Of a stretch of DNA of 64,000 bases, positions 4,139 through 57,849 are shown one piece after another. Within the stretch, counting starts at the first letter, position 1, and the number at the start of each line of letters is the position of its first letter. The DNA lies in NCBI GenBank assembly GCA_019338205.1, contig GCA_019338205.1_4761.1. The stretch is one strand, 5' to 3'. The notes under the pieces were generated by a model that ran no database searches, was not told where the DNA came from, and worked only from the letters and a program-made list of their open reading frames with translations. Source of the stretch: a phage. Made by a program: the position numbers and the translations under genes.

Positions 4139-4950
4139 TGAAGAAAGCATTAGGTTTAATTCCCTATACTGGCAATAAGGAAAAGCTATTGCCAGGTGTT
4201 AGTAAGTATTTCCCTAAGCACTATAACCGCTTTGTTGATGCCTTTTGTGGCGGCTTGAGCGTGTCTCTGTACGTCGAAGGTGATGTGCTAGCTAATGACT
4301 ATGACCATCGTTTAATTGACGCTTACAAGGCCATTGATGCGTGTCCTGATCCGGTTTCTACAATCAAGCGGATTATTTCCGAGAATGGTTTGTCTCGTGA
4401 TGATAAAGATGCTTACATGGCATTCCGTAAGAAGTATAACGAGAATCCAGATCCGCTATCGCTGTTTGTGTTGATTCAGCATAGTTTTAGCAACATTAAC
4501 CGCCATAATCGCAAAGGTGAATTTAATGCTAACTTTGGTCGCCGGACTTTTAACGAAAACGCGGTAGAGCGTGTCCTGAATTTTAAAGAAGAAAACAAAG
4601 ATGGTCGAATCAATTTTACTTCTGGACGATATGACGAGATCGAGATCTTGCCAGGTGATTTCGTTTATTTGGACCCGCCGTACCTTATCACTTCTGCTGA
4701 ATATAATAAGTTCTGGAGTGACGAGGAAGAGATTAAATTCTATCGGTGGGTAGAATCTATTATGGCGCGTGGTTTTCAGTTTGGTATCAGTAATGTCACG
4801 CATCATAAGGGAAATGTAAATGATCATCTTCTTGACTTTATCAAGCGGAATGATTTAAACTGCGTCCTGTTGAATAAGACCTATTGCCTAGACCGTTCAG
4901 GCGGCAAGTCTTCTGATACGCAAGAAGTTTATGTAACTAACGTAGATTGA
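4138..4950 (+). CDS. dam: DNA N6-adenine methyltransferase (Dam)
   Basis: AdoMet motif DAFCGG and catalytic DPPY motif; size 270 aa like T4 Dam. Confidence 0.8.
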   Translation: MKKALGLIPYTGNKEKLLPGVSKYFPKHYNRFVDAFCGGLSVSLYVEGDVLANDYDHRLIDAYKAIDACPDPVSTIKRIISENGLSRDDKDAYMAFRKKYNENPDPLSLFVLIQHSFSNINRHNRKGEFNANFGRRTFNENAVERVLNFKEENKDGRINFTSGRYDEIEILPGDFVYLDPPYLITSAEYNKFWSDEEEIKFYRWVESIMARGFQFGISNVTHHKGNVNDHLLDFIKRNDLNCVLLNKTYCLDRSGGKSSDTQEVYVTNVD

Positions 4951-4958
4951 GGTATAAT

Positions 4959-5240
4959 ATGGTAGAAATTTTTGGTTTTGAAGGTTACAACTGTAAGTAT
5001 TGCCAGAATGCAAAGCGCCTTTGTGAATCGCGTAAGATCCCTTACATCTACATTCCGGTTAATGATGGTGTGGACGAAAACGGTCGCCCTGTAAAGATTG
5101 ATTCTATCATTGCCGATATTCAGGATCGCGCAGGGGTAGAAGTTATTGCCACCATGCCGCAGATTTTCTATGATGGTGATTATATTGGTGGCTTTGATGA
5201 GTTCCGATCCTTTGTAGTCAAAAACAAGATTCATGGTTAA
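4959..5240 (+). CDS. nrdC: NrdC-like thioredoxin/glutaredoxin
   Basis: CKYC redox motif near N-terminus, ~93 aa, position upstream of gene 49. Confidence 0.65.
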   Translation: MVEIFGFEGYNCKYCQNAKRLCESRKIPYIYIPVNDGVDENGRPVKIDSIIADIQDRAGVEVIATMPQIFYDGDYIGGFDEFRSFVVKNKIHG

Positions 5241-5741: not shown

Positions 5742-5770
5742 TTGACAATAAGAAATGGGAGTAGTAAAAT
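5742..5770 (+). promoter_or_regulatory. sigma70-like early promoter with GGGAGTA/TACTCCC inverted repeat across -10
   Basis: TTGACA 5742-5747, 17 bp spacer, TAAAAT 5765-5770. Confidence 0.6.
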
Positions 5771-5801
5771 ACTCCCATCTAATCAAGAAGGAGAATCAAC
5801 A

Positions 5802-6652: not shown

Positions 6653-6681
6653 TTGACATGATGAAACGGGAGTAGTAAGAT
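6653..6681 (+). promoter_or_regulatory. sigma70-like early promoter with GGGAGTA/TACTCCC inverted repeat
   Basis: TTGACA 6653-6658, 17 bp spacer, TAAGAT 6676-6681. Confidence 0.6.
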
Positions 6682-6712
6682 ACTCCCATCTAAACAACGA
6701 GAGGATTATATT

Positions 6713-48790: not shown

Positions 48791-49063
48791 ATGAGCAACG
48801 AAAACAGCAAAGTGTTAGCAATTGCAAATAAAGTAGGTTACTGGAAATGCTGGGATGATATGGAGAAATTAGGCGGTCGCTATCTCGATAACTTAGAGTT
48901 GCATTATTGCCAAGCGCGTAATGCAGAAGTTGCGGGAGTAGCAATCGAAGATATTCCGTCTAAGGTCTTCGGATTCTCTAAAGATGATACTTTAGAATAT
49001 GTTTTCAAGGCTGTTATGGATCAAGCATGGGAAGACGCAGAGACACGCGCTCTTGATTGGTGA
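48791..49063 (+). CDS. hypothetical protein
   Basis: 90 aa; AAGGAGAATCAAAGATG. Confidence 0.5.
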   Translation: MSNENSKVLAIANKVGYWKCWDDMEKLGGRYLDNLELHYCQARNAEVAGVAIEDIPSKVFGFSKDDTLEYVFKAVMDQAWEDAETRALDW

Positions 49064-49067
49064 TAAT

Positions 49068-49229
49068 ATGAACTGGTATAAAATTTGGAAAAATCAGGTG
49101 GAGGCTTATCTAGGGTATAAGCCCACCGACGAAGAATTACTTGAAGCAATGTACGAAGACGGACTAAATCCGAAAGTAGCCGCGCAAGAATACGCGGAAT
49201 GGGTGAAGGTCGAAAATAATTTAAAATAG
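49068..49229 (+). CDS. hypothetical small protein
   Basis: 53 aa ORF. Confidence 0.35.
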   Translation: MNWYKIWKNQVEAYLGYKPTDEELLEAMYEDGLNPKVAAQEYAEWVKVENNLK

Positions 49230-49232
49230 TTG

Positions 49233-49261
49233 TTGACGTAAAGAAACGGGAGTAGTAATAT
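49233..49261 (+). promoter_or_regulatory. sigma70-like promoter with GGGAGTA/TACTCCC inverted repeat
   Basis: TTGACG 49233-49238, 17 bp spacer, TAATAT 49256-49261. Confidence 0.55.
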
Positions 49262-49293
49262 ACTCCCATACCAAACGAAAGAAGGAGAATCAC

Positions 49294-49506
49294 ATGAAAT
49301 CTAGTGAGCAAGTAGTGACTGAATTTATGAGCTACGAAGGAAACCGCATCTTTGGACGTTCTCAAGTTCGCGAGATCGTAGAAGAAGTTGCGGGAGAGTT
49401 TGCGGAATCTGGTCACGTTATCACGCAAGAACGTAAAGAAGAAGCAGTAAGCCAGATCATGGCTATGCAGAAAATGCGTATTAATGCACGAGCGGGTAAA
49501 AATTAA
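49294..49506 (+). CDS. hypothetical protein
   Basis: 70 aa; AAGGAGAATCACATG. Confidence 0.5.
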   Translation: MKSSEQVVTEFMSYEGNRIFGRSQVREIVEEVAGEFAESGHVITQERKEEAVSQIMAMQKMRINARAGKN

Positions 49507-49516
49507 AAAATAGTTG

Positions 49517-49545
49517 TTGACAGGGGATCGGCGATCCCCTATACT
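49517..49545 (+). promoter_or_regulatory. sigma70-like promoter with spacer palindrome GGGGATCGGCGATCCCC
   Basis: TTGACA 49517-49522, 17 bp spacer, TATACT 49540-49545. Confidence 0.6.
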
Positions 49546-49576
49546 AAACTCATCAAGACAACGAAGGAGAATCAAA

Positions 49577-49732
49577 ATGAAACATACTCACAAATTAATG
49601 GTTAAATTTTAAGGCGCTAAAGGATATGAACGTTACGGTGTATTCTTCTCTGAGGATGATGCATGGAATGCTGGTCTGGCAACGTTCGCCGAGCACAACA
49701 ACATTGAAGACTTTACTGTAGAAGAAATTTAA
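49577..49732 (+). pseudogene. small ORF interrupted by an in-frame TAA (candidate pseudogene or readthrough)
   Basis: Promoter + AAGGAGAATCAAAATG, 11 codons, TAA at 49610-49612, then 39 in-frame sense codons to TAA 49730-49732. Confidence 0.35.
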
Positions 49733-49739
49733 AAAGTAG

Positions 49740-49768
49740 TTGACACCGGATTAAGGGAGTAGTAAGAT
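49740..49768 (+). promoter_or_regulatory. sigma70-like promoter with GGGAGTA/TACTCCC inverted repeat
   Basis: TTGACA 49740-49745, 17 bp spacer, TAAGAT 49763-49768. Confidence 0.6.
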
Positions 49769-49802
49769 ACTCCCATCAAGACAAAACACTGAGGAATATA
49801 TT

Positions 49803-50561
49803 ATGAAAAACATTATCGCTGCTATCGTTCTTTCTGCTACTGCTTTCGGTGCTAACGCTGCGTCCTTTGATTGCGCTAAAGCTACTACCAAATCAGAGAA
49901 GTTTATTTGTGCTAATGAGTCTATCTCCGCACTGGACTCTAAACTTCATGAAGTGTATGTTAAGGCTGTTAAGATTGATCCGTCTCTGAAACAAGAGCAA
50001 CGAAACTGGAATAAAACTGTTCGTGATACAATGATCAATATCGGGCAGATTCAGCCACTGGAGGCTGTATACAACGCTCAAATCCAAAACTTGATGAATG
50101 TATTACCTAAAGAAGAAACCGCGTCAGAAAGCGATTCAGAGACTTCTGCGAAGGTTGAAGAAGAACAACCGAAACAGGAAGCAAAAGTGGTAGAAGAACC
50201 GAAGGTCGAAACTTTTACCTATCAATGCACTGTTCGCTATGAGTGGAGTATTAAAGATGGAATTTCTACCAAAATTAAAGAAGCGCCACTGTATGCCAAA
50301 TATGGAAATCAACCAGGAGATCTTAAAGTAACCATTAAAAATGGGAAGATGGTTGATTTTGTATACATTGATGAATACAACGTACACAAAGCAAACGTAC
50401 AAGAAACCGTTATGACTAAAGGCGGGTTTTATAAGAATGTTGGCAAGAAAGATCTATATGAATACTCCGTTTTCGAACCAAACGACGGAACTATTCGATT
50501 TGAAAAACGTCATCCTACATTCGGTGGAGCAATTGATGTAGATCAATACGTTTGCAAGTAA
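49803..50561 (+). CDS. secreted protein with LprI-like architecture (DUF1311-like N-domain + MliC-like C-domain)
   Basis: Signal peptide MKNIIAAIVLSATAFGANA; FDCAKATTKSEKFIC..LDSKLHEVY..QRNWNKTVRD; acidic linker; C-domain with two Cys. Confidence 0.55.
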   Translation: MKNIIAAIVLSATAFGANAASFDCAKATTKSEKFICANESISALDSKLHEVYVKAVKIDPSLKQEQRNWNKTVRDTMINIGQIQPLEAVYNAQIQNLMNVLPKEETASESDSETSAKVEEEQPKQEAKVVEEPKVETFTYQCTVRYEWSIKDGISTKIKEAPLYAKYGNQPGDLKVTIKNGKMVDFVYIDEYNVHKANVQETVMTKGGFYKNVGKKDLYEYSVFEPNDGTIRFEKRHPTFGGAIDVDQYVCK

Positions 50562-50572
50562 GAGGTTAAATT

Positions 50573-50860
50573 ATGCAATTCAATAACATGAAGATTACAA
50601 AAGATTGGTGGAAGGCGATGCAAGATACTCCAGAAACCAAATTGAATGAGACCACAACAACAATACAAGTTGATTACGAAGATCCGAAAGACATATACAG
50701 AGAGATTTTAATCAGAGAGCTTATAAAAGCTGGAAACTATCAAACACCAGATGGCCTTATTGACATGATGGTTAAAGGTCTGTATAGTGGTAAAAATCCA
50801 GATATTTTACCGTGGTACGAGGGATATTTTAAAACATATCGTGACCACAACCGAAAATAA
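50573..50860 (+). CDS. hypothetical protein
   Basis: 95 aa ORF. Confidence 0.5.
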   Translation: MQFNNMKITKDWWKAMQDTPETKLNETTTTIQVDYEDPKDIYREILIRELIKAGNYQTPDGLIDMMVKGLYSGKNPDILPWYEGYFKTYRDHNRK

Positions 50861-50883
50861 GTTGTTGACGTGAGGATTATATT

Positions 50884-51075
50884 ATGGTAATTTTTAATCG
50901 TGATGGTATCATAGTTCGGCAACATCCATTCCTTGAATACTATCAGGTTGAACAATGGGGATATGGGGATTGCTCGCGCTCATACGGTCAAAGCTGGGGA
51001 TACCGTACAGTTTTTGAATCAACTAATATTGACAAAATACGACAGAAAGTTTTAGAACTTCTGAACGATAAGTGA
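50884..51075 (+). CDS. hypothetical protein
   Basis: 63 aa; GAGGATTATATTATG. Confidence 0.45.
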   Translation: MVIFNRDGIIVRQHPFLEYYQVEQWGYGDCSRSYGQSWGYRTVFESTNIDKIRQKVLELLNDK

Positions 51076-51085
51076 GGATTGCATC

Positions 51086-51454
51086 ATGGAAATTCAAAAC
51101 AATTACGAAAAATGTGTTATTATCAATGATCTGCAACGTCAATTGCATCATTACGAAACCGATTATAAAACATCAACAAAAACCGGAAAGTTGAAAGTGT
51201 GGGAAGTCTGGTATAACCGAAACTATCTGGGAAGCATCCACAAACTTGATCGCAGTGATGTTTATACAATGCATGTAGGCGCTTGTGGTGAATCGGATGT
51301 AGCATCTAATTTCATGGAAGCACTTGCATTCTATGTAGAATATCTGGTAGACTATATCGAGTTGGAAGAGGAAGTGGTAGAATTGCTTCCTCCACCGGAA
51401 GAAGCGCCGGAAGCAACGATCCTGAAAGCATTAAAGAAAATCTTTGTTAAGTGA
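51086..51454 (+). CDS. hypothetical protein
   Basis: 122 aa ORF. Confidence 0.5.
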   Translation: MEIQNNYEKCVIINDLQRQLHHYETDYKTSTKTGKLKVWEVWYNRNYLGSIHKLDRSDVYTMHVGACGESDVASNFMEALAFYVEYLVDYIELEEEVVELLPPPEEAPEATILKALKKIFVK

Positions 51455-51462
51455 GGTGAACT

Positions 51463-51795
51463 ATGAAAAATGTACTGATTGTGTGGGAACTGATTCCAGA
51501 AACTACTGAATTATACATGGTACAGGTTGATAATAAAGAATTTGAAATTCTGAAACGCGTCAACTGCAAATATATTAACATTGATGACATAACCCCAGAA
51601 ATGGACTATGTAAACTATGCTCTCATGCAGCCTAGTTGGATTATGGATGAAACTAAAGCAGACGCCGAATCGCTGGGTGTACCGGAAGAAGTATTAGCGA
51701 AATGGCATCAATTCAAAGTTGAAATAAAGGAGGGCGAACCGTTTATTCCTAGCGGTATGATCGATGCGGTGATCGTAACAGGTTTTCATCTGTAA
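51463..51795 (+). CDS. hypothetical protein
   Basis: 110 aa ORF. Confidence 0.5.
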   Translation: MKNVLIVWELIPETTELYMVQVDNKEFEILKRVNCKYINIDDITPEMDYVNYALMQPSWIMDETKADAESLGVPEEVLAKWHQFKVEIKEGEPFIPSGMIDAVIVTGFHL

Positions 51796-53841: not shown

Positions 53842-54144
53842 TTAACGGTTGCTCAAGCGTCTATAACGAAGATGGGAAATACCCCTGTTTGTAGTTACCG
53901 TGATCGTTACTCCCTGCGGCACAATACAAGAATGGATCTGTCCCCAATCATGACCCTTATGACTTCCAGACACACAGAAGCCATGCAAAAGCAATTCTGA
54001 GTCACCACCGCCACCACCAGAAGAACTAGCACCAAATGAAACCGTACCGAAAGCGTCGGCTGTCCAACCGTTAGGAATATCAAACCATCCCTGATTCGCT
54101 TTACCGGCTTTATTGTCTAAAACTCCATACACCCAATATCCCAT
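53842..54144 (-). CDS. glycine-rich small protein, tandem paralog C
   Basis: MGYWV..GWFDIPNGW..GGGGG; AGGAG RBS; TAATG coupling to upstream paralog. Confidence 0.6.
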   Translation of the reverse strand: MGYWVYGVLDNKAGKANQGWFDIPNGWTADAFGTVSFGASSSGGGGGDSELLLHGFCVSGSHKGHDWGQIHSCIVPQGVTITVTTNRGISHLRYRRLSNR

Positions 54145-54449
54145 TAATGCATTCTCCTAAATTGGAAGTGGTTTAAACTTCCTTTACCAATACTAAAACT
54201 GACAGTAGCGCCAGCACCAACTAAAGAACTTGCTCCCCAACTTCCTGCATTACCAGCGTGATGACCTGATTCGAGAGTACCGTTTACATATAATTCTGCG
54301 TCCAGGTCACCACCGCCACCAACGGCTTCGGCATGAACAGACACAATACCGCATGAATCAGCCACCCAACCATTAGGGATACCAAACCACCCACCATTAG
54401 CATAAATGCTAATAGCATTAGCCATTCTTCCCGCAACCCATCCAGCCAT
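54144..54449 (-). CDS. glycine-rich small protein, tandem paralog B
   Basis: MAGWV..GWFGIPNGW..GGGG; GGAG RBS. Confidence 0.6.
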   Translation of the reverse strand: MAGWVAGRMANAISIYANGGWFGIPNGWVADSCGIVSVHAEAVGGGGDLDAELYVNGTLESGHHAGNAGSWGASSLVGAGATVSFSIGKGSLNHFQFRRMH

Positions 54450-54451
54450 AA

Positions 54452-54748
54452 TTAAAACTCCATAAATTTAAAGTATTCAATACCACCGCCACCACCATGA
54501 CCAAAGGTGACAGTACATCCAGCAGGAACAAACGCATTAACCGTAAATCCCCAATCCCCACCACCACGACGACGCGCGGCGACCACACCGTCAACGGAAA
54601 TATGAATATCACCCCAAACATCACGAGCGGTATGCCGCAAAACGGCAACACCAGCACGACCGGGGACATATCCATTAGGAATGTCAAATACATGCCATTT
54701 TACAGCATCGATTTTAGTTCCTTGTTCATTACTTACCCAATAGCCCAT
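54452..54748 (-). CDS. glycine-rich small protein, tandem paralog A
   Basis: MGYWV..FDIPNGY..GGG..GGGGG; AAGGA RBS after hairpin. Confidence 0.6.
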   Translation of the reverse strand: MGYWVSNEQGTKIDAVKWHVFDIPNGYVPGRAGVAVLRHTARDVWGDIHISVDGVVAARRRGGGDWGFTVNAFVPAGCTVTFGHGGGGGIEYFKFMEF

Positions 54749-54786: not shown

Positions 54787-57700
54787 TTAACCAAATAATT
54801 TTGCTTCAATTGCAGCAAGACGATCATGAAGAATTTTATTTTCTTCTTTCAGACGGTTATTTTCTTCTTTAAGAAGTGCGATTTCTTCGGTGTGTTCGTT
54901 GATTGCCGCAGTATTTAAACCAATTACACCGTTATAGTTCAAACGAAGTAGAGCTTCGCCATCAGGGTCACCTTCAACTAATTCTGGTAAAATAGCTTGA
55001 ACTTCTTGAGCAATTAAACCGGCGTTAGGTTCCCATTTCTGATTGCCTTCTTCATCTAGGCCTCGCTTCTGCATATAAGTGTAACCATTAATTTTGGAAA
55101 GCCTCTCAGAAGCATTTTCAAATTTAACAAGGTCTTTTTTAACACGAATATCAGAACGAACATAAACATCGCGGACATATGTGGAATAGGAATCGCTTTG
55201 TTGGATTAAATGACCAAAAGAAATAATAGCTCTTCCGTGTTCAGTCCACAGAGCACCAGTGGTATCCCAAAGACCTTCATGGAGATGGTAAGCGGACGAC
55301 CATGAAGCAATATGCATTCCATTTGCAACCATATTGATTCGGCCGTCACCACCATGAACTAATCCAGTATCATTATCACCAATAACAACACATGCGCCTG
55401 TCCATACAGGGTCACCTCCACCAGCTGATACTCTTACTCCAGCTTTAACCATGTCAGGAACGTACATGTTTCCATTATGGTGGAATTCGAAGACAGCTTG
55501 CGGATCAGAACCATTTTCCTGGTTACCTACACGAATAATACCTTGTGCCCAGTTATTAGGAATGCGTCGCATACCAAAATCAACGCCAGAAAAATATCCT
55601 TCGTTAGTAATACCAGATTTTCCTTTAATAATAGGGTAATAGCAGTCATTACCGACATAACCAAAATCCACAAATATAGGAGCTTCTTGACGCCATTGAT
55701 TTCCCCAATCGCCGGCCTGGTGTGCGATCCATTGTGTACCGTTTATATGAAGGCGGTCTCTATTAAAATTAAATGTTCCTTGTCCTTGAGGAGAAAGCGA
55801 TATTTCGCCGTTATTTGTTATGTATACAGCGCCTTGTGTAATGTAACTGTAAAAGCCTAGACCATTGTCACCACCGCCTTTGCCTATATACCAGTTACCT
55901 GTACCGTCTATGTCACCACGAATATGCAAAGAATTACTAGCAGTTGTTGATAATACAATAGAATCACCCGGACGTTTAATAATCAATCTACCTTCGGATT
56001 CAACTTCACCAAAAAATTTAGTCTTAATTGCACCAGTCGCTAAAGTACGTTCAGTGGAAAAATGAACGCCTTTGCTATCTTCTAACTGGATGATGTTATC
56101 ACGAGCATTATTACTATCACCCCAATGGTTAAATTTAAAATAATCTCGTGATCCTAAACGTCCGGCGTCAAAAATCATCAAGCCTTTCATGTTAATATCA
56201 CCACCAAAAAATGCGGTGAGAGAATCACATTTTAATTTTAAAACGTTAGCACGACTAGTACCACCTAAAGAAACATCACCAGTGCTAAATTCATAACTGA
56301 AAGGTCTATTTGTATTAAAGTTTCCATCTTTATCATTTTCGTCGGTGGAAAGAATATAAAGACGCGAGCTATCAGCACGGAAAATTGTACCAAAATTTCC
56401 GCCATACATACGGAAAGCATTAGCTGGGCGGAATTTAACTTCTGCGTTAAAAGTTGTAGTTGATTTAAACGTGGTTGCAGCACCGAAGTTAACTGCACCA
56501 TTAAAATCTTGTTGAGCTGTCCATGTATGGCGACCATCTTCAAGAACAACACGACGAACTCTGCAACTTCTATTTCCCGGATTACCAGCAACACGAACGA
56601 CAAAATAACGGTAGTTATTTTGTGTCACAGTACCGCGCCAAACCTGAACAGTACGCCCTGTGCTAGTGTGTTCGCTAGGACCGACGGAAAACAGAATCAA
56701 GTTTTCATCAATCGTGCCCCAATCCATATTTTCTGGCATGTTCTTTATTTTGTTCAAAGGAACGCTAAACATACTACCGGGGACAAAATCAAAAGTTTGC
56801 CAATCTAACTCTGTTAATTTAGATTTAACACCACCCATACCCAAAGTAATTGGCATAGAATAGGACGTATATACTTCGTACCAATTGCCCCAGATGTTAT
56901 TTGTCATCGCACGTTCAAACACGCGAGATCGCGTAGTTTCACCCGTTCCTGCGGTAGTGAAACGTTGGAAAATAGCGCCGCCGGAAGCACGCTGTTTAAC
57001 CTCAAGCAATCCGGTCATCTCAACCGGAACACCTTCTGCAACTGGACGGTTAATAACGGCATCAGTGCCTAAAATATTATATAAGCCAGGAGAACGAAAA
57101 TTATTAAGATCCCCGTCATAAAATGTGCTGGGAGTAACCATGCCTACTTGTTGCCACGGTCCCCAATTCGGAGCTTCTGGATCCCATGCACCAGCAAGAC
57201 AACGAACATATACAACACCCATTCGGGTAGTATAACGTTGCGTGCGAGAATAGTTACCACCTTCATAAATTTCTAAAAGACCTTGCGCGAGACCACCTTC
57301 TTCTGGGTAATTTCGAGAAAATGATGCAATGGAACTTGAACTATTTCGCCATAACCCAAAATGAGAAGCATCACCTAAAGTATTCAAGTCTAGTGTAGTT
57401 GATAGTGGACGTGTGCCAGTTTGAATATTGCGCCACGGACCCCATGGACCATCTACGCCATTCCATTTCGCGGACAAAGAACGGATATAAACGTTACCAG
57501 ACCGAACCGTATAACGCTGAGTGCCAGCAAATTGACCAGCCACAAATACTTCTAATACACCTACAGCATTCTCTTCTGGGAATTTATTTGCTGGCTGCGC
57601 ATTTGTTGAAGTTGATTTAGACCAAACGCCAGTAAATTTACCAGTAGGTCCATAATTATCTAAATTTGCATCAGATGGCAACTCACCGCGAAAGTGTCCC

Positions 57701-57849
57701 AAAGTAATTACATTATTGCTGTCATCTTTTGTATATAGTTCTCGATCCGCTAGGTTAATAGCAAGTTCACCCGGAGTTAGAATATTCGCATCCGGCTTGC
57801 GACCTGCCGTACTTGTTCTTTTAAATTGGATTCTCTGTAAATCTGCCAT
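54787..57849 (-). CDS. 37: long tail fibre distal subunit gp37 with C-terminal intramolecular chaperone-like domain
   Basis: N-terminus MADLQRIQFKRTSTAG..GELAINL like T4 gp37; C-terminus SDIRVKKDL..GYTYMQK..GLIAQEV..coiled coil resembles peptidase S74-type chaperone domains. Confidence 0.8.
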   Translation of the reverse strand: MADLQRIQFKRTSTAGRKPDANILTPGELAINLADRELYTKDDSNNVITLGHFRGELPSDANLDNYGPTGKFTGVWSKSTSTNAQPANKFPEENAVGVLEVFVAGQFAGTQRYTVRSGNVYIRSLSAKWNGVDGPWGPWRNIQTGTRPLSTTLDLNTLGDASHFGLWRNSSSSIASFSRNYPEEGGLAQGLLEIYEGGNYSRTQRYTTRMGVVYVRCLAGAWDPEAPNWGPWQQVGMVTPSTFYDGDLNNFRSPGLYNILGTDAVINRPVAEGVPVEMTGLLEVKQRASGGAIFQRFTTAGTGETTRSRVFERAMTNNIWGNWYEVYTSYSMPITLGMGGVKSKLTELDWQTFDFVPGSMFSVPLNKIKNMPENMDWGTIDENLILFSVGPSEHTSTGRTVQVWRGTVTQNNYRYFVVRVAGNPGNRSCRVRRVVLEDGRHTWTAQQDFNGAVNFGAATTFKSTTTFNAEVKFRPANAFRMYGGNFGTIFRADSSRLYILSTDENDKDGNFNTNRPFSYEFSTGDVSLGGTSRANVLKLKCDSLTAFFGGDINMKGLMIFDAGRLGSRDYFKFNHWGDSNNARDNIIQLEDSKGVHFSTERTLATGAIKTKFFGEVESEGRLIIKRPGDSIVLSTTASNSLHIRGDIDGTGNWYIGKGGGDNGLGFYSYITQGAVYITNNGEISLSPQGQGTFNFNRDRLHINGTQWIAHQAGDWGNQWRQEAPIFVDFGYVGNDCYYPIIKGKSGITNEGYFSGVDFGMRRIPNNWAQGIIRVGNQENGSDPQAVFEFHHNGNMYVPDMVKAGVRVSAGGGDPVWTGACVVIGDNDTGLVHGGDGRINMVANGMHIASWSSAYHLHEGLWDTTGALWTEHGRAIISFGHLIQQSDSYSTYVRDVYVRSDIRVKKDLVKFENASERLSKINGYTYMQKRGLDEEGNQKWEPNAGLIAQEVQAILPELVEGDPDGEALLRLNYNGVIGLNTAAINEHTEEIALLKEENNRLKEENKILHDRLAAIEAKLFG

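Follow-up and report, generated by a model that had tools for sequence, protein, structure and literature searches.

LprI-type proteins carry a small domain, PF07007 (LprI, formerly DUF1311), whose family members have been associated with antagonising periplasmic cell-wall-degrading enzymes. In Mycobacterium tuberculosis, LprI (Rv1541c) joins PF07007 to an MliC domain (PMC7933661). Among the LprI-domain proteins of enterobacteria, Salmonella ScwA alone has had its phenotype studied; it is periplasmic and disulfide-bonded and controls the levels of MltD and other hydrolases (Slt, AmiC) while having no role in lysozyme resistance (PMC7933661). Etsi4, a DUF1311 protein of EHEC, relieved the toxicity that the T6SS effector Etse4 exerts in the periplasm (PMC12981562), and a link between DUF1311 proteins and T6SS effectors has been inferred from gene context in Pantoea (PMC9796082) and in Salmonella Dublin (PMC8867033). 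Among phage proteins, T4 Spackle (gp61.3) inhibits the gp5 tail lysozyme (PMC7677548), and it is the only phage-encoded periplasmic tail-lysozyme inhibitor named in the literature cited here. The T4-type phages RB49 and phi1 are further known for their PeSL (“promoter-early stem-loop”) elements, which in reporter fusions act as strong early promoters and also as terminators (PMC2839356), and PeSL cassettes have been reported to mediate gene shuffling in RB49-type phages.

The gene considered here lies in a stretch of phage DNA of 64,000 nucleotides, which is called the window below. The first-pass annotation had described a phage-encoded protein, and the window indeed belongs to a Krischvirus (RB49-like) phage that is ~98% identical to RB49, the Krischvirus reference genome. 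Positions 49000-51500 match 59 Krischvirus records, and among the best 20 of these Escherichia phage RB49 has 98.4% identity and the 19 others have 94-98%. The gene sits among small genes between gene 52, encoding a topoisomerase subunit, and holin t, from which it is 2.3 kb distant. Its homologues RB49p262, phi1p262 and EpJSE_00265 are all annotated “hypothetical protein”, and the 252-aa product matches two PHROG families, both catalogued under unknown function: the match to phrog_14799 spans the entire protein, that to phrog_4675 the N-terminal half. The gene is intact and conserved in 57 phage records. Compared with RB49, which carries the same allele type, its codons differ at 16 synonymous and 2 non-synonymous places, distributed evenly across both halves, a ratio that indicates a functional coding sequence under purifying selection within one allele type. 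Literature searches on RB49p262 or on LprI-type phage proteins retrieved no specific study, and the sole mention found is a 2006 table in which RB49ORF260c is listed with a weak DUF1311 match (E = 0.2). The coordinates of the locus are collected in Table 1.

Table 1. Features of the locus, in window coordinates; the E. coli copies are given in the coordinates of the retrieved locus pieces.
Feature	Position	Strand	Description
PeSL-type element	49740..49774	+	sigma70-type promoter and stem-loop directly upstream of the CDS
Shine-Dalgarno GAGGAA	49791..49796	+	6 nt 5' of the ATG; read from sequence
CDS	49803..50561	+	252 aa, ATG start; RB49p262 / phi1p262 / phrog_14799 homologue
Sec signal peptide (predicted)	49803..49859	+	residues 1-19, cleavage site ANA/A, no lipobox
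LprI/DUF1311 helical domain	49860..50102	+	residues 20-100, invariant pair C24/C36
Acidic E/K/P/S-rich disordered linker	50103..50204	+	residues 101-134; from predicted disorder and composition
C-terminal 8-stranded beta-barrel cassette (predicted)	50205..50558	+	residues 135-252, allele A1, between C142 and C251
3' homology arm	50569..50635	+	start of downstream ORF 50573..50860; fragment also present behind E. coli prophage copies
Downstream ORF	50573..50860	+	95 aa, phrog_15915, function not known
E. coli copies	L004 12001-12771 (H2); L010 3001-3780, L011 3001-3795, L002 8001-8795 (others)		

Further along the window, three small ORFs (~100, 101 and 98 aa) lie on the - strand at 53842-54748, between holin t and gp37. 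They have no PHROG match and occur in only five phage records (G2248, UPWr_E1, G37-3 and KFS-EC, the last deposited twice), RB49 having dc5/p252 at this place.

Directly upstream of the gene is an element of the PeSL type. Its promoter consists of a -35 box TTGACA (49740-49745), a 17-nt spacer and a -10 box TAAGAT (49763-49768), matching the sigma70 consensus at 10 of 12 positions in a promoter scan, and a perfect 7-bp stem-loop, GGGAGTA-GTAAGA-TACTCCC (49755-49774), overlaps the -10 box. The strict pattern TTGACA-N9-GGGAGTA-N6-TACTCCC is found four times in the window against none expected by chance, and the four copies of this type, all on the + strand, lie at 5742-5776, 6653-6687, 49233-49267 and 49740-49774. 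The last of these fits the description of the PeSL-associated genes in the hyperplastic regions of RB49-type phages (PMC2839356). By analogy with the elements of RB49 and phi1, this promoter makes it plausible that the 252-aa protein is expressed early, as had been proposed before the element was recognised.

The N-terminus, MKNIIAAIVLSATAFGANA followed by AS, reads directly as a typical Sec signal peptide of the signal peptidase I type, in agreement with the first-pass annotation, with recognisable n-, h- and c-regions and an A-N-A site. A signal peptide is present in all homologues, and residues 1-20 are modelled with pLDDT below 50. No lipobox of the form L-[AS]-[GA]-C was found in the N-terminal sequence, which runs ...FGANA/ASFDC across the cleavage site. 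The domain that follows is, as judged from its sequence, a true member of the DUF1311/LprI family, and the same assignment had been made earlier from the spacing of its hallmark residues: residues 24-76 score 25.8 bits (E = 1.4e-5) against Pfam PF07007, above the gathering score of 22, over profile positions 1-71 of 106 only. The profile matches 15 of the 15 family members scanned, and likewise the protein P0019 and distant homologues from Klebsiella and Aeromonas phages; the N-domains of Klebsiella phage PWKp18 and Aeromonas phage AS-sw are PF07007-positive at 41% identity. Four cysteines (C24, C36, C142 and C251) occur without exception in all homologues, including those whose C-domain cannot otherwise be aligned. 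An AlphaFold2 model built from 14 homologues predicts four helices over residues 30-98, with pLDDT of 60-75; the models come from shallow alignments and reach a pTM of only ~0.45. Among PDB sequences, neither the complete protein nor the N-domain profile found a homologue.

With PF07007 proteins such as EHEC Etsi4, the phage protein thus has in common a signal peptide and a small helical domain with a conserved pair of cysteines near its N-terminus. It differs from the members of the T6SS immunity type in being the product of a probably early gene of a lytic T4-type phage, in possessing a long acidic linker and a swappable barrel, and in having no adjacent effector gene. The closest phage relatives outside Krischvirus are the phrog_4675 proteins of Klebsiella Marfavirus and Aeromonas T4-like phages, which are of similar size (239-250 aa) and, as in Krischvirus, are composed of a signal peptide, an LprI N-domain with the signature AASFDC...IC, a linker and a C-domain with two cysteines. 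The C-domain of phrog_4675 is, in contrast to that of the Krischvirus barrels (phrog_14799), a different family, conserved across genera (Klebsiella, Aeromonas).

Between the two domains lies the acidic linker, which had been recognised earlier and is borne out both by its composition, with 11 E and 5 K in residues 101-136, and by predicted disorder, with AlphaFold2 pLDDT below 50 over residues 104-131. Beyond it AlphaFold2 predicts eight beta strands over residues 135-251 (pLDDT 80-88), consistent with the original description of a beta-rich domain bracketed by two cysteines, here the invariant C142 and C251. M. tuberculosis LprI has the same layout of signal sequence, PF07007 and small beta-barrel, and the two proteins differ in that LprI is a lipoprotein with a bona fide MliC domain (PF09864), whereas the phage protein has neither a lipobox nor detectable MliC homology. 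The two-domain arrangement of LprI, to which the protein had been likened, is therefore a valid analogy for the order of the domains and fails for the homology of the second one.

The proposal that this second domain is MliC-like is not borne out by sequence comparison. None of the 15 members matched PF09864 at E <= 10, a profile of ten type-A barrels (the barrel type carried by the window, see below) found no MliC or PliC chain among PDB sequences, and an exhaustive phmmer search of the barrel against 1.84 billion representatives retrieved only its own family and three repeat-protein artefacts. When the C-domain alignment was compared by hhalign with an MliC alignment composed of the MliC/PliC proteins of E. 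coli, Pseudomonas and Brucella and their enterobacterial homologues, the probability was 1.7%, and it was 0.9% for the alignment of the alternative type-B barrels. With Pfam, PDB profile, hhalign and phmmer all negative, MliC homology was rejected at the level of sequence. The invariant MliC pattern S-x-S-G...Y...W-x-K-G (S42, S44, G45, Y48, W56, K58, G59) has no conserved counterparts in the phage barrel, which separates it from the MliC/PliC, PhiA and Neisseria ACP inhibitors; the barrel varies most in just this stretch, and the “TKGG” seen in the window allele is not conserved among the others.

The structural matches are generic. A Foldseek search of the barrel gave no match at E <= 1e-3, with NHBA, FABPs and lipocalins ranking first, and the structure search returned many generic small barrels, with PhiA, ACP and PliC among the matches and other, unrelated barrels equally good. 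The type-B model is also eight-stranded and retrieves barrels of the NHBA, fHbp and TbpB type and no member of the MliC/PliC family. On these models the barrel and MliC/PliC would belong to the same fold class, a resemblance that is non-specific. The C-domain is best described from its sequence as an orphan barrel bracketed by a predicted disulfide and not demonstrably MliC, and the MliC-like label is only weakly supported.

The barrel is a sharply bounded cassette (~50205-50558) that exists in at least two sequence-unrelated types in genomes otherwise ~97% identical. Phi1 and JSE are 96-98% identical to the window at the DNA level up to positions 50204 and 50210, and have no detectable identity from there until 50543 and 50560, after which it returns; the breakpoint at 50204 falls exactly where the predicted barrel begins (residue 135). 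In different relatives the 5' breakpoints fall at about 50173, 50181, 50204 and 50210, within or at the end of the linker. The barrel DNA of the window is present at 95-99% identity in 45 phage records and absent, even by sensitive blastn, from the other 14 of the 59 Krischvirus records, so the alleles are discrete. In public protein clusters type A is split into several sub-alleles with 27-41% identity to the window barrel, and there is also a type-B group, the two types having in common only a first-strand motif, F-x-Y-x-C...IDG. Homology between types A and B was considered and rejected, as hhalign gave 2.7%, and they are treated here as unrelated in sequence. The near-invariance of the N-domain is mere genome background, and the anomaly is the barrel. 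In Phi1 the downstream ORF (50573-50860) is also strongly diverged, at 69% nucleotide identity between flanks of 97%, which indicates that the replaced block in this phage reaches past the barrel into the next gene.

Discrete ancient alleles, together with purifying selection within an allele, fit a protein that faces variable partners. A partner within the phage itself was considered in the form of the gp5 lysozyme, whose domain is 94-100% identical in all 60 matching Krischvirus records, including Phi1 and JSE with their different barrels. Co-evolution of the barrel with gp5 was rejected on this ground: since gp5 is nearly invariant across barrel alleles, the barrel is not tracking the phage's own tail lysozyme, and exclusion of kin through gp5, if it exists, would rest on the constant N-domain. 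The tail fibres provide a second comparison, as the window and RB49 both carry allele A1 (97% nucleotide identity) but have unrelated gp37 tips; this is one counter-example to co-variation of barrel and fibre, drawn from the window and RB49, and the gp37 region of the window is itself mosaic. The gp37-like distal long-tail-fibre subunit of the window is encoded on the - strand at 54787-57849, and its C-terminal tip, especially 54861-55700, has 97% DNA identity to gp37 of T-even phages, Tequatrovirus PP01 among them. The C-terminus of RB49 gp37 has only ~35% amino-acid identity to it over the last 115 residues, and the window Krischvirus thus carries an imported fibre tip of the T-even type.

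Copies of the gene are also found on bacterial chromosomes. Among 5426 complete E. coli genomes, 26 have a copy annotated by NCBI as “lysozyme inhibitor LprI family protein”, in isolates from humans and animals, with 95-97% DNA identity to the phage gene over its first 371-408 nt. In each of the four genomes inspected (H2, 14EC017, PI7 and E275a) the copy lies at the end of a lambda-like prophage with capsid, portal, terminase and Rha genes; the prophage is inserted beside hicA/hicB, and in three of the four it is hicA/hicB that is annotated as truncated. Identity between phage and prophage begins 6 nt 5' of the ATG and ends inside the linker. In H2 and 14EC017 it resumes just past the stop codon for 64-81 nt at 82-91%, matching the start of the Krischvirus downstream ORF, and this remnant behind the prophage gene suggests a Krischvirus-like genome as the donor. 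At 38-39% GC, the copies resemble the phage (40.6%) and not E. coli. The gene has thus passed between lytic phage and prophage. At least three barrels occur in the four strains, A2-like in H2, A4-like (P0013 group) in 14EC017 and B in PI7 and E275a, so that cassette exchange operates at the prophage locus too. A position at the prophage end with at least three cassettes fits a function that is useful to lysogen and infected cell alike.

The first-pass annotation had compared the possible role of the protein with that of T4 Spackle, a small, early, Sec-exported periplasmic protein of a T4-type phage, as the Krischvirus protein is predicted to be. Spackle differs in being a single all-helical domain, and it has no sequence relationship to the Krischvirus LprI protein. 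A tblastn search with a Spackle query 100% identical to T4 orf 61.3, run against RB49 positions 1-146000 in three pieces and against the window, which covers the remaining span, found no homologue, the only matches being at E >= 0.066 inside gene 41. The only T4-lysozyme-like (GH24-like) sequence in RB49 is the Phage_lysozyme domain of gp5 (RB49 piece L012, 15150-16952), and the annotated endolysin, RB49p102 (same piece, 4719-5108), is a Peptidase_M15_4 protein and not a T4 e-type lysozyme. It follows that a periplasmic muramidase inhibitor would not disturb the phage's own lysis, and that with no Spackle, a gp5 lysozyme and a peptidase endolysin, such an inhibitor would fill in RB49 the niche that Spackle has in T4. 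For the same reason modulation of the phage's own endolysin, which had been offered earlier as an alternative, was rejected as unlikely. The T4-like Klebsiella phage PWKp18 has both an annotated Spackle (L008 140-421) and a 250-aa LprI-domain protein of phrog_4675 (L008 2501-3253), 2 kb apart near the primase gene, and Spackle and the LprI-domain protein are therefore not simple substitutes. A role analogous to Spackle is plausible, with circumstantial support from the absence of Spackle in RB49 that is weakened by PWKp18.

These observations can be brought together in the reading that we regard as the best supported and put forward tentatively, as possible rather than probable: early in infection the protein may bind or inhibit, in the periplasm, peptidoglycan hydrolases that enter the cell, and so serve envelope protection or superinfection exclusion. 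It would be made early in infection and exported by Sec as a soluble periplasmic protein of three parts, a constant helical DUF1311/LprI domain, a flexible acidic linker and a disulfide-stapled eight-stranded barrel. Sequence-unrelated barrel alleles would be swapped by homologous recombination, with the N-domain and linker on one side and the 3' flank of the gene on the other as arms. The protein would neutralise peptidoglycan-degrading enzymes entering from outside, for example tail lysozymes brought by superinfecting phages, or T6SS and bacteriocin toxins of the muramidase type, with the DUF1311 domain as a generic inhibitor module and the variable barrel as a module for specificity or for a second target. 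In role, and not in ancestry, it would resemble T4 Spackle and the periplasmic immunity proteins of T6SS. The reading is tempered by ScwA, which has no part in lysozyme resistance, by the co-occurrence with Spackle in PWKp18, by the generic structural matches of the barrel and its failure to track gp5, and by searches with the PADLOC defence models, which gave only noise (E 0.004-0.012). For the phage protein we infer periplasmic localisation, the disulfides, any binding partner and an exclusion phenotype. A bolder version, which we consider unlikely as a whole, would see a polymorphic periplasmic “immunity” gene in which a DUF1311 module is combined with barrels each directed against a different cell-wall-degrading weapon, the alleles being traded between lytic Krischvirus phages and a resident E. 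coli prophage as one exclusion arsenal common to virulent and temperate phages.

The protein might instead act on enzymes of the host, binding or stabilising lytic transglycosylases and amidases in the manner of ScwA and so affecting envelope integrity or the timing of lysis. ScwA, with its effect on MltD, Slt and AmiC and none on lysozyme resistance, is a precedent, the gene lies close to holin t, and PhiA, which inhibits a bacterium's own muramidase, is among the best structural matches of the barrel. Host peptidoglycan hydrolases are highly conserved within E. coli, however, and offer no obvious reason for unrelated barrel alleles, and ScwA is built differently, as a 275-aa helical protein that carries the LprI domain at its C-terminus; we regard this reading, too, as unlikely. 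In another reading the barrel would mask a receptor or entry route, binding the periplasm-exposed part of an outer- or inner-membrane component through which competing phages bring in their DNA, as with Llp, Cor and Imm, and the DUF1311 domain would be a scaffold. Receptor-related proteins are often allelic and cassette-like, as the barrel is, small eight-stranded barrels like those of NHBA, fHbp and TbpB serve to bind proteins, and the prophage end is a typical position for superinfection-exclusion morons. Against this, the barrel allele does not follow the tail-fibre type in the comparison of the window with RB49, the protein is predicted to be soluble and neither a lipoprotein nor a membrane protein, and the conserved DUF1311 domain is left without a role, which makes masking quite unlikely.

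Inhibition of animal or environmental c-type lysozyme, as by MliC and M. tuberculosis LprI, would make the gene a lysogenic-conversion or fitness factor that protects lysogens or infected cells in the gut. The order of PF07007 followed by a beta-barrel is that of LprI, and both the source of the chromosomal copies, human and animal E. coli, and their NCBI name would agree with it. The MliC loop residues that enter the lysozyme active site are nevertheless absent along with any detectable sequence homology, E. coli has an MliC of its own, unrelated barrel alleles would go unexplained if there were one conserved target, and there is no clear benefit for a lytic phage with a short latent period, so that we judge this function very improbable. 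Least probability of all is given to a small-ligand-binding or anti-defence role, in which a calycin- or Cap15-like pocket would sequester a periplasmic small molecule or lipid, or the protein would neutralise an envelope-associated host defence.

RB49-like phages are common in phage-therapy collections. New with respect to the databases and the literature found are the recombining, discrete barrel cassette, the sharing of the gene between Krischvirus and prophage, and the genomic logic of a phage with no Spackle, a gp5 lysozyme and a peptidase endolysin. If the protein is only a generic member of the LprI family, the gain is an improved annotation for phrog_14799 and phrog_4675. If it is an envelope-protection or exclusion factor, as we tentatively propose, this would give the phage DUF1311 proteins a function, would explain how RB49-like phages exclude competitors, and would show a lytic phage and a prophage trading the specificity cassettes of one gene, with the discrete barrel alleles providing ready-made material for specificity swaps.
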